Of a DNA stretch of 30,447 nt, positions 8,222 to 9,268 are shown in pieces (position 1 is the first letter of the stretch; the number at the start of each line of letters is the position of its first letter). The DNA is from a virus: the UHGV virus genome UHGV-0176192; one strand, 5' to 3'. The notes beneath the pieces are model-generated. The model saw only the letters and a list, made by a program, of their open reading frames with translations, was not told the DNA's origin and did no database searches. Made by a program: the position numbers and the translations under genes.

Positions 8222-9268
8222 ATGGCTAATACTGTAAAAATATCCAGTTGTGAGTTAATCAACGCTGATTGCCTGGAATTTATCCAGACTTTACCGGAAA
8301 ACTCTGTCGATCTGATAGTCACAGACCCGCCATACTTTAAAGTGAAGCCCGAGGGCTGGGATAACCAGTGGAAGGGCGACGATGATTATCTGAAATGGCT
8401 GGACCAGTGTCTGGCGCAATTCTGGCGGGTACTGAAGCCTGCCGGAAGTCTTTATCTGTTCTGTGGTCATCGCCTGGCATCTGATATCGAAATCATGATG
8501 CGTGAACGCTTTAATGTGCTGAACCACATTATCTGGGCGAAGCCGTCCGGGCGCTGGAACGGGTGCAACAAGGAAAGCCTGCGGGCGTATTTTCCGGCAA
8601 CAGAACGCATTCTGTTTGCAGAACATTATCAGGGGCCATACCAGCCCAAAAATGACGGCTATGCGGCAAAGGGGCGCGAGCTAAAACAGCACGTCATGGC
8701 CCCGCTGATTTCTTACTTTCGTGATGCGCGTGAATCACTGGGAATAACGTCAAAACAGATAGCGGAAGCCACCGGAAAGAAAAACATGGCTTCGCACTGG
8801 TTTGGTATCAGTCAGTGGCTGTTGCCGAACGAAGGCGATTATCTGAAATTACAGGCGTTGTTTGCGCGTGTTGCAGCAGAAAAACATCAGCGCGGTGAAC
8901 TGGAAAAGCCACATCACCAGCTGGTCAGCACATACAGTGAACTGAACCGGCAATATGCCAGTCTGCTGGATGAGTACAAATCCCTGCGGCGTTATTTTTC
9001 CGTATCGGCTGCCGTTCCGTATACGGATGTCTGGACGCACAAGCCTGTGCAGTATTACCCCGGCAAACATCCCTGTGAGAAACCGGCGGATATGTTGCGT
9101 CAGATAATTACCGCCAGCAGCCATCCGGGAGATTTGGTCGCTGATTTTTTTATGGGGTCGGGGTCAACAATAAAAGCAGCATTATCGCTGGGAAGGCGTG
9201 CAATAGGTGTGGAACTGGAAGAAGAGAGATTTAACCAGACTGTAATTGAAATAAAAAATAATCGTTAA
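8222..9268 (+). CDS. DNA amino-methyltransferase (N6-adenine or N4-cytosine, beta-class motif order), orphan
   Basis: Motif IV DPPY (LIVTDPPYF) near the N-terminus and motif I FxGxG (VADFFMGSGST) near the C-terminus; no restriction endonuclease partner visible in the window. Confidence 0.9.
   Translation: MANTVKISSCELINADCLEFIQTLPENSVDLIVTDPPYFKVKPEGWDNQWKGDDDYLKWLDQCLAQFWRVLKPAGSLYLFCGHRLASDIEIMMRERFNVLNHIIWAKPSGRWNGCNKESLRAYFPATERILFAEHYQGPYQPKNDGYAAKGRELKQHVMAPLISYFRDARESLGITSKQIAEATGKKNMASHWFGISQWLLPNEGDYLKLQALFARVAAEKHQRGELEKPHHQLVSTYSELNRQYASLLDEYKSLRRYFSVSAAVPYTDVWTHKPVQYYPGKHPCEKPADMLRQIITASSHPGDLVADFFMGSGSTIKAALSLGRRAIGVELEEERFNQTVIEIKNNR

Follow-up and report, generated by a model that had tools for sequence, protein, structure and literature searches.

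What does the orphan DNA methyltransferase (MTase) encoded at positions 8222-9268 of the virus genome UHGV-0176192 methylate, when is it made, and how might its production be controlled? The stretch of DNA analysed here (30,447 nucleotides (nt), hereafter the window) is a lambdoid prophage, and an earlier reading of its sequence (the original prediction) had singled out this gene as an orphan amino-MTase in the late region. We find that the gene encodes an intact member of the M.EcoGII family of β-class N6-adenine MTases, most likely one that would act on adenine in essentially any context, and that its start codon lies directly behind a conserved, structured RNA leader. Expression of M.EcoGII is toxic to the cell, and its gene stays silent in the lysogenic state; the leader may control production of the MTase, and most of what is new at this locus lies there.

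An intact β-class methyltransferase of the M.EcoGII family

The product of the gene matches the Pfam family N6_N4_Mtase (PF01555; 154.2 bits, where the cut-off is 26.7; E=6.6e-45; residues 29-340), DNA-methyltransferase families of PHROG, and the PADLOC model for Type II MTases (MTase_II, E=8e-153); among NCBIfam models, the YhdJ- and CcrM-like ones gave sub-threshold matches only. Its motifs run from motif IV (DPPY, residues 35-38) through the target recognition domain (TRD) to motif I (FFMGSG, residues 309-314), which is the β-class order, and the 348-residue β-class DPPY amino-MTase of the original prediction is thereby upheld. A Dam-type (α-class, GATC) phage orphan MTase was ruled out by this order and by the lack of any Dam-family profile among the Pfam and NCBIfam matches of the protein. 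In a phmmer search of the PDB, the solved β-class enzymes M.BceJIV (2e-25), RsrI (1.6e-22), MboIIA (1.3e-16) and CcrM (3.6e-16) were matched across both the motif IV and the motif I halves, and the same enzymes were the top Foldseek matches (~1e-11) of an AlphaFold2 (AF2) model which, built from a low-diversity alignment of 54 sequences, is poor (average pLDDT, the predicted local distance difference test score, 65.5). The model places helices at residues 146-173, 177-184, 190-193, 204-223 and 231-254, with means for blocks of 10 residues of ~55-81 across residues 151-250, and its flanks at 100-151 and 251-286 fall below a pLDDT of 50.

Inspection of the catalytic motifs by alignment had been proposed as a means of recognizing an inactive enzyme. 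Among 120 homologue representatives, DPPY, F309, F310, G312 and S313 are invariant, while M311 is found in 115 and G314 in 118; at columns conserved in at least 90% of the representatives, the sole departure of the window protein is F278Y, a conservative change present in M.EcoGII too. The gene is intact, without sign of inactivation, and the observation as a whole lies well outside what chance would produce. Its orphan status was likewise borne out: no restriction endonuclease domain was found in any open reading frame (ORF) of the window, the nuclease-like ORFs being ordinary phage HNH/DUF968, RusA and terminase proteins only. A Type II restriction-modification (R-M) system was ruled out, as there is no adjacent cognate endonuclease gene, and the neighbouring cargo varies among relatives in which the MTase is kept.

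The key lead came from the original prediction, which had noted near non-specific adenine methylation by some enzymes of prophages. M.EcoGII, from E. coli O104:H4, has been characterised biochemically as an adenine MTase without sequence specificity (Murray et al. 2018, PMC5778455). Its sequence was taken from the machine-read Table S1 of the SUPREM paper (PMC11551740), which contained errors; three corrections of the optical character recognition (OCR) type were made and four repaired versions were tested, one of which equals the exact 349-residue protein of O104:H4 genomes (P0121; AFS73976.1, AKE83937.1). Against this protein the window MTase is identical at 300 of 346 positions (87%; 93% positives), without gaps. 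The two proteins agree at 97% of positions in the N-terminal catalytic part, at 83% in the TRD and at 76% in the C-terminal part; in the linkers they agree at 80% and 77%, so that the charged interdomain linker region of M.EcoGII is kept. The 46 substitutions include 13 among the 78 TRD positions, and the C-terminal 30 residues are the most divergent. By the OCR text of PMC11551740, the MTase has 88% identity with Anc291, a reconstructed ancestor, and 73% with SUPREM, neither of which showed a methylation motif by nanopore RNA sequencing, whereas the closest site-specific relative, M.PflMI, is merely 27% identical to M.EcoGII (PMC11551740). Because the former identities are high and M.PflMI is far, sequence comparison places the MTase well inside the experimentally sampled non-specific clade, and methylome work on E. 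coli strains that make Shiga toxin (STEC) likewise predicts "nonspecific" for homologues at ~93% similarity (PMC6602927). With 87% identity overall, 83% in the TRD, and the same gene order as at the M.EcoGII locus, the earlier opinion that the target specificity could not be deduced from the sequence is not supported; the enzyme is most likely one that would methylate the N6 position of adenine in essentially any context.

A sequence-specific orphan adenine (or N4-cytosine) MTase with a motif of its own would be the obvious alternative, as PF01555 includes many site-specific enzymes, RefSeq labels the family "site-specific DNA-methyltransferase", and one of the TRD differences from M.EcoGII, L200, is unique to this allele. 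The RefSeq label is, however, a generic family name, the TRD differs without insertions or deletions, ancestors down to ~73% identity show no motif (in the RNA methylation assay of PMC11551740), and M.PflMI, besides being distant, is without the charged linker; we therefore regard a private motif as quite unlikely. The substrate itself may also be questioned: M.EcoGII methylates single-stranded DNA, RNA and RNA:DNA hybrids (PMC5778455), and closely related reconstructed ancestors are highly active on RNA (PMC11551740), such that transcripts or replication intermediates, rather than duplex phage DNA, might be the main natural target. The initial rate of M.EcoGII on DNA nevertheless exceeds that on RNA ~90-fold (11.12 vs 0.12; PMC11551740 Table S3), and a place in the late operon fits modification of DNA before packaging, making RNA or another single-stranded nucleic acid a very unlikely main substrate.

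At least 12 further contigs encode exactly this protein, some of them in an identical prophage layout, and relatives at 63-87% protein identity are found across Enterobacterales. A copy at 80% or more DNA identity is carried by 1885 of 5426 complete E. coli genomes (35%), with up to five per genome. The 4200-10200 stretch is not covered to 80% or more in one place by any of the complete E. coli genomes in the collection. The DNA-level matches include the "putative DNA methylase" of the Stx2e phage phiP27 (93%), many Stx2 phages (~86%) and phage 1720a-02 (86%), the last of which is known to carry a close relative of M.EcoGII (Murray et al., PMC5778455).

A conserved RNA leader ends at the methyltransferase start

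The 135 nt directly 5' of the MTase start codon are conserved across genera, with a mean pairwise identity of 81% over 51 loci, equal to that of codon position 1 of the adjacent MTase coding sequence (81%) and well above that of position 3 (49%). A covariance model of this segment (R1) matched the window at 8087-8227 with 120 bits (E ~1e-34) and the M.EcoGII locus with 120.5 bits; each of 53 Enterobacterales loci, phiP27 among them, and the M.EcoGII locus held a single motif, which in every case ended where the MTase starts. A motif-pattern scan of IMG/VR returned more than 120 contigs, of which the first 77 usable ones were examined; in 75 of the 77 the MTase ATG lies 110-150 nt from the start of the motif, and the two matches without an MTase (L143 and L168) were set aside as chance matches. 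One IMG/VR locus (L107) is a truncated copy. In genomes and viral contigs alike, the leader was found only before MTases of the M.EcoGII family. At Xenorhabdus and Photorhabdus loci only a hairpin resembling helix P2 (below) is kept, and the full motif does not extend there.

Rfam 15 gave no match to the leader at E<=1 (search of 5500-10500), and a search of 8040-8260 gave chance-level miRNA, snoRNA and CRISPR-repeat matches only (E>=4.5); no description of the leader was found in a literature search. No Shine-Dalgarno sequence precedes the MTase ATG. An upstream ORF of 47 residues (8086-8229), overlapping the MTase ATG, was considered as a leader peptide and rejected because of stop codons in relatives. 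Of 53 sequences, at most 23 have any given frame open, whichever strand is read, and the spacer length ranges from 137 to 142 nt; because no frame is open across the homologues and the lengths vary, the leader is not coding.

Upstream of the leader lies a gene for a 65-residue winged-helix protein. Its match to Pfam TrmB is weak (E=0.0026, below cut-off), and its phiP27 homologue is annotated in RefSeq as a TrmB family regulator. A winged-helix homologue ~150 nt upstream of the MTase was detected at 52 of 75 species-level genome loci and on 64 of 71 IMG/VR contigs, and the M.EcoGII locus has such a gene too (67 residues). Winged-helix gene, leader and MTase, with the tRNA genes next in order, thus recur as a conserved module, within which the leader is retained also at loci where the winged-helix gene was not detected. 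The 65-residue protein could act as a controller of the MTase.

The leader can adopt two mutually exclusive folds

A first structure, fold A, was derived with RNAalifold and manual inspection, and R1 was then used to align 52 distinct sequences. In this alignment 94.5% of the cells of fold A are paired, compared with 32-45% in slid controls, and 14 of its 29 pairs change on both sides, compared with 5.3 +/- 1.3 in shuffles, none of 500 of which reached the observed value; pair counts were similar on a MAFFT alignment. In helix P3, one pair occurs as CG in 27 sequences, AU in 9, UA in 9 and UG in 6, and is never unpaired. The excess of G-U over A-C mismatches that would indicate the transcribed strand is missing for fold A (52 vs 54), making the test uninformative.

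The minimum-free-energy structure (z = -2.9 and -2.5) is a different one, fold B. It keeps P2 and P4, replaces P1 and P3 by a helix AUGGGC/GCUCAU (P1'), includes a further helix of GGCCCA(C) with (G)UGAGCC, and pairs GGUCA.AAGCA with UGCUU..UGAUC, thereby covering the region from -13 to -2 relative to the MTase ATG. Fold B is paired in 94.7% of cells and has 15 double-change pairs, and none of 500 shuffles attained the observed value of any measure for either fold; the double-change pairs of fold B lie mostly in the shared P2 helix, and the B-specific helices contribute 5. Its G-U pairs outnumber A-C combinations by 144 to 30, pointing to the + strand, and slid controls for the two folds together range from 28 to 47% paired. 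Folds A and B are mutually exclusive and each has covariation support; because the "loop" segments each have two partners in the two folds, their near invariance is accounted for. The leader thus has a multi-helix fold with covariation and an alternative pairing that occludes the start region, as in bistable cis-regulatory leaders. Three other pairings, namely a GUGAGC/GCUUAC 3' hairpin, a GCUCA/UGAGC pairing and an ATCAG/CTGAT hairpin by the ATG, were dropped because their variants are uncompensated.

The sequences against which the structures were tested are those from which they had been derived, and a good number of pairs show no variation at all, which leaves room for the view that the 135 nt hold no functional RNA and owe their conservation to a recent horizontal spread of the module, to an operator or promoter in the DNA that serves the winged-helix protein, or to a small ORF. 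Phage modules do spread horizontally, fold A is without the G-U excess, and Xenorhabdus and Photorhabdus keep the P2 hairpin only. Against this view stand the 81% identity in the leader beside 49% at codon position 3 in the same 51 loci, the 14-15 double-change pairs against ~5 in shuffles, the four kinds of pair seen at one position of P3, the low pairing of the slid controls, the G-U excess of fold B, the closed frames and variable lengths, and the retention of the leader where the winged-helix gene was not detected. We judge a leader without RNA function unlikely, though this alternative keeps appreciable weight.

More specifically, we tentatively propose, being slightly more inclined to doubt than to accept it, that the leader is an undescribed, family-specific bistable cis-regulatory RNA which would gate translation of a toxic non-specific MTase by alternating between a three-way junction fold and a fold that buries the start. 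Such an element could act as a riboswitch, for which S-adenosylmethionine (SAM) or S-adenosylhomocysteine would be the obvious candidate ligands, or as a kinetic timer that permits translation of the nascent transcript only; it could also be the target of the 65-residue winged-helix protein or of the RNA-methylating activity of the MTase itself.

The methyltransferase is probably expressed late, under Q

As the original prediction had stated, the MTase lies in the late region, between the gene for antiterminator Q (5634-6008) and the holin and endolysin genes (10152-11189). Between Q and the winged-helix gene is a conserved element (7666-7753) that ends in a short GC hairpin followed by five T residues. 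Some 480 nt upstream of stx1A, the Stx1a phage Stx1_14040 has a segment that shares 84% identity with this element; the Q of that phage is 90% identical to that of the window and is also directly followed by minus-strand cargo. In phiP27, the Q of which is 43% identical, similarity starts only part-way into the element, and in E. coli MB06234, which has an unrelated Q of 229 residues, only the hairpin and the part downstream of it are in common; the element is also present at the M.EcoGII locus. By these comparisons, the upstream part of the element covaries with the Q allele and the terminator is constant, and we consider the element a likely late promoter and Q-utilisation (qut) region with the terminator tR'. 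A second terminator-like hairpin with a T-run sits where the winged-helix gene ends, immediately before the leader, and relatives have a hairpin of variable sequence at the same place.

Given its place behind this terminator and the Q-allele-linked element, the MTase gene is most likely transcribed late in dependence on Q and kept silent in the lysogen, and its product would hypermethylate progeny DNA against restriction. The arrangement of terminators agrees with reports that M.EcoGII and M.EcoGI gave no detectable methylation in lysogens (PMC5778455), that homologues behave likewise (PMC6602927), and that strains overexpressing M.EcoGII are unhealthy (PMC5778455; PMC6602927). In 45-kb qO111 Stx2a phages a regulator and a methylase have been noted between q and the tRNAs, upstream of stx2 (PMC8456039); the comparative-genomics paper on pR' (PMC6266700) does not mention the methylase.

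The original prediction had offered two roles for the enzyme, protection against host restriction and alteration of host epigenetics. The first is likely; for M.EcoGII, such a benefit is a proposal of the authors (PMC5778455). The second, in which the MTase would be a lysogenic-conversion gene active in the lysogen and remodelling the host epigenome, is suggested by its position in a region where stx and other conversion genes sit, and many orphan MTases do regulate host genes. Set against the silence of M.EcoGI, M.EcoGII and homologues in lysogens, the harm done by M.EcoGII overexpression, and a gene placed behind two terminator-like hairpins without a Shine-Dalgarno sequence and with a leader able to sequester its start, this second role is extremely unlikely.

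We regard it as probable that the window encodes an active MTase of the M.EcoGII/M.EcoGI family which is produced late in dependence on Q, is gated by its leader and methylates phage DNA as a protection against restriction. The enzyme would be a homodimeric, SAM-dependent β-class MTase converting adenine to N6-methyladenine (m6A) in essentially any context. In the lysogen, transcription would most likely stop at the terminators, and any read-through mRNA would be poorly translated, the leader folding over a start region that has no Shine-Dalgarno sequence. Upon induction, Q-modified RNA polymerase would read through and the enzyme would be made late and in limited amount; replicating and packaged phage DNA would become heavily m6A-methylated before packaging, and in the next host Type I, II and III restriction of the adenine-sensitive kind would lose force. 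The family, the intact motifs, the synteny and the leader with its two folds are observed at this locus; non-specificity, toxicity and lysogen silence are taken from the literature on M.EcoGI and M.EcoGII, and what we infer is that this allele has the same specificity, that it is made late in dependence on Q, that the phage gains protection from restriction and that the leader is regulatory.

Several observations weigh against this proposal. A scan of 7620-7760 found no sigma-70 site on the + strand, manual inspection revealed no convincing -35/-10 pair, and the hairpin of the 7666-7753 element has only ~4 GC pairs; because convincing hexamers are missing and the hairpin is short, the late promoter and tR' are putative assignments made by comparison. 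The specificity and activity of this allele are predicted from homology, and two of its residues are unique among the 120 representatives: L200 in the TRD (nt 8819-8821; Q or S in the others) and H301 before motif I (nt 9122-9124; mainly R or K in the others). Either could change the activity of the MTase or its bias; since 12 contigs or more encode the identical protein, they are not sequencing errors. The AF2 model, moreover, is too poor for independent confirmation of the TRD architecture, which for M.EcoGII has been described from AF2 as a four-helix-bundle helix-turn-helix (HTH) domain with a long, helical, charged linker (PMC11551740).

Organisation of the surrounding prophage

The features of the window are collected in Table 1. 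The label "moron slot" in the original prediction was right as to the late region and loose as to the gene, for the MTase belongs to the conserved module, and the variable slot lies upstream, between Q and the Q-linked element. This slot appears to hold exchangeable cargo: genes matching the PDC-M53 models in the window, in neither of which a Pfam domain was found, a GIY-YIG nuclease gene in phiP27, a MazF/PemK toxin gene in E. coli MB06234, three minus-strand ORFs of unknown function in phage Stx1_14040 and two minus-strand ORFs in the M.EcoGII prophage.

Table 1. Positions of the features discussed, in nt from the first letter of the window
Feature	Position	Strand	Evidence and remarks
hok/gef-family small toxin ORF, 70 aa	2469-2681	+	PF01848 on the identical gene in contig L003; early (nin-like) region
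DUF968/HNH	4220-5269		
RusA	5282-5653		
Antiterminator Q	5634-6008	+	PF06530, E=1.1e-44; phrog_79; presumed activator of late transcription through the module
Variable cargo slot, Q to Q-linked element	~6009-7665		In relatives: L001 3239-4468, L002 3886-4287, L009 3877-5984
PDC-M53B match, candidate defence gene	6001-6576	-	PADLOC, E=2e-54; ~33% GC; overlaps the end of Q by 8 nt
PDC-M53A match, candidate defence gene	6584-7612	-	PADLOC, E=3e-31; ~33% GC
Q-allele-linked conserved element	7666-7753	+	Ends in short GC hairpin and T5 (~7729-7750)
Winged-helix (weak TrmB/MarR-like) protein gene, 65 aa	7874-8071	+	phrog_331, E=1.8e-47
Terminator-like hairpin and T-run	8058-8085	+	Promoter/terminator scan: GCCTTCCGCAGTGAAGGC then TTTTTAATTT
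Conserved structured RNA leader, 135 nt	8087-8221	+	Covariance model R1, folds, conservation; immediately precedes the MTase ATG
Fold A, P1 (UGGGC/GCCCA)	8093-8097/8165-8169	+	
Fold A, P2 (long hairpin)	8098-8109/8117-8128	+	
Fold A, P3 ((U)UCGCU/AGCGA(A))	8130-8135/8153-8158	+	
Fold A, P4 (GCUUU/AAAGC)	8171-8177/8183-8189	+	
Fold B, P1'	8092-8097/8133-8138	+	
Fold B, occluding helix	8146-8156/8209-8220	+	Covers -13 to -2 of the MTase ATG
M.EcoGII-family β-class N6-adenine MTase, 348 aa	8222-9268	+	ATG start; ORF, PF01555, identity to M.EcoGII
MTase motif IV (DPPY), aa 35-38	8324-8335	+	
MTase TRD, aa 160-237	8699-8932	+	
MTase motif I (FFMGSGS; FxGxG), aa 309-315	9146-9166	+	
tRNA-Thr(UGU) and tRNA-Gly(UCC)	9437-9512, 9516-9590	+	ARAGORN; Rfam tRNA, 66 bits each
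Phage_holin_8 and Phage_holin_3_7 holin genes	10152-10544, 10480-10809	+	Tandem, overlapping ORFs

Directly 3' of the MTase is a pair of tRNA genes, in place of which relatives have Thr/Gly, Arg/Gly or Ile/Arg pairs; the tRNA-Thr/tRNA-Gly pair is annotated likewise in E. coli relatives. The tandem holin genes precede that of an M15 peptidase endolysin, as in phiP27, and 3' of the lysis genes follow DUF1441, large terminase, portal, protease/capsid and lambda-like tail genes. On the + strand, a 560-nt non-coding stretch (9591-10151), common to the LT-IIb prophage SerU-LTIIb, separates tRNA-Gly from the first holin gene, at the place where phiP27 has stx2e. It contains four terminator-like hairpins (at 9689, 9952, 10000 and 10111) and, at 9786-9981, a weak, sub-threshold match to the Rfam small RNA STnc100 (28.6 bits; gathering score 47).

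Significance

The MTase itself is ordinary, being one more allele of a common and characterised prophage family from which no new enzymology is expected. What is new is the structured leader matching no Rfam family, and only this leader and the winged-helix gene accompanying it merit closer study. The analysis yields a concrete regulatory architecture: the Q-linked element with its terminator, then the small winged-helix gene, then a strongly conserved two-state leader. If the leader switch is real, it would be a new class of RNA motif and would explain how M.EcoGII-type genes, among them the one behind a widely used chromatin-footprinting enzyme, are carried harmlessly in about a third of E. 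coli genomes; the leader could then also serve as a tight control element for M.EcoGII-type tools.

Comparison with known systems

The closest characterised counterpart is M.EcoGII of strain C227-11 (EGT69837.1), which has 349 residues where the window protein has 348 and shares its β class and motifs. Its locus (L210, O104:H4) follows the order of the window, with Q (PF06530), two minus-strand ORFs, the element, the winged-helix gene, the leader and the MTase; the winged-helix gene there encodes 67 rather than 65 residues and is followed by a spacer of 151 nt to the MTase. M.EcoGI and the "nonspecific" homologues, such as M.Eco95JB1I/II (PMC6602927), belong to the same family and are likewise prophage-borne, predicted to be non-specific and silent in lysogens, but are other alleles in other prophages. 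In phiP27 and the 45-kb qO111 Stx2a phages (PMC8456039) the layout is the same, the winged-helix gene being followed by the MTase and the tRNAs; the L24 "putative DNA methylase" of phiP27 is 92% identical in protein to the window MTase, and the methylase DNA of phiP27 and the Stx2a phages is 86-93% identical to the window gene. These phages differ from the window in their Q alleles, in the cargo between Q and the module, and in having stx 3' of the tRNAs, where the window has its non-coding stretch. M.PflMI (CCANNNNNTGG) has the same β-class fold and a TRD of the HTH type (PMC11551740). It is without the charged interdomain linker, whereas the window MTase keeps the linker region.

M.HaeV, whose relatives are phage-associated, belongs to an unrelated sequence family. 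M.HaeV and other adenine MTases of relaxed specificity (Drozdz et al., cited in PMC5778455) likewise approach context-free adenine methylation, and similar enzymes are widespread in GenBank (PMC5778455); their recognition is, however, relaxed (BA) rather than absent, and PMC5778455 does not group M.HaeV with the M.EcoGII family. M.BceJIV, RsrI, MboIIA and CcrM have the catalytic core in common with the window MTase, at ~20% identity and without similarity in TRD or linker.

For the regulatory part of the module, the parallels lie further afield. The hok mRNA and the leader of the MS2 maturation gene are structured 5' leaders in which alternative folds expose or bury the start of a harmful gene, and in the C-protein control of R-M systems a small HTH gene is located just upstream of the MTase. 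The winged-helix protein of the window is not a known member of a C-protein family, and there is no sequence or Rfam relationship to these systems; by analogy of arrangement, the leader and the winged-helix gene together nevertheless resemble them, with a leader that may bury the start of a harmful gene and a small HTH gene just upstream of an MTase.

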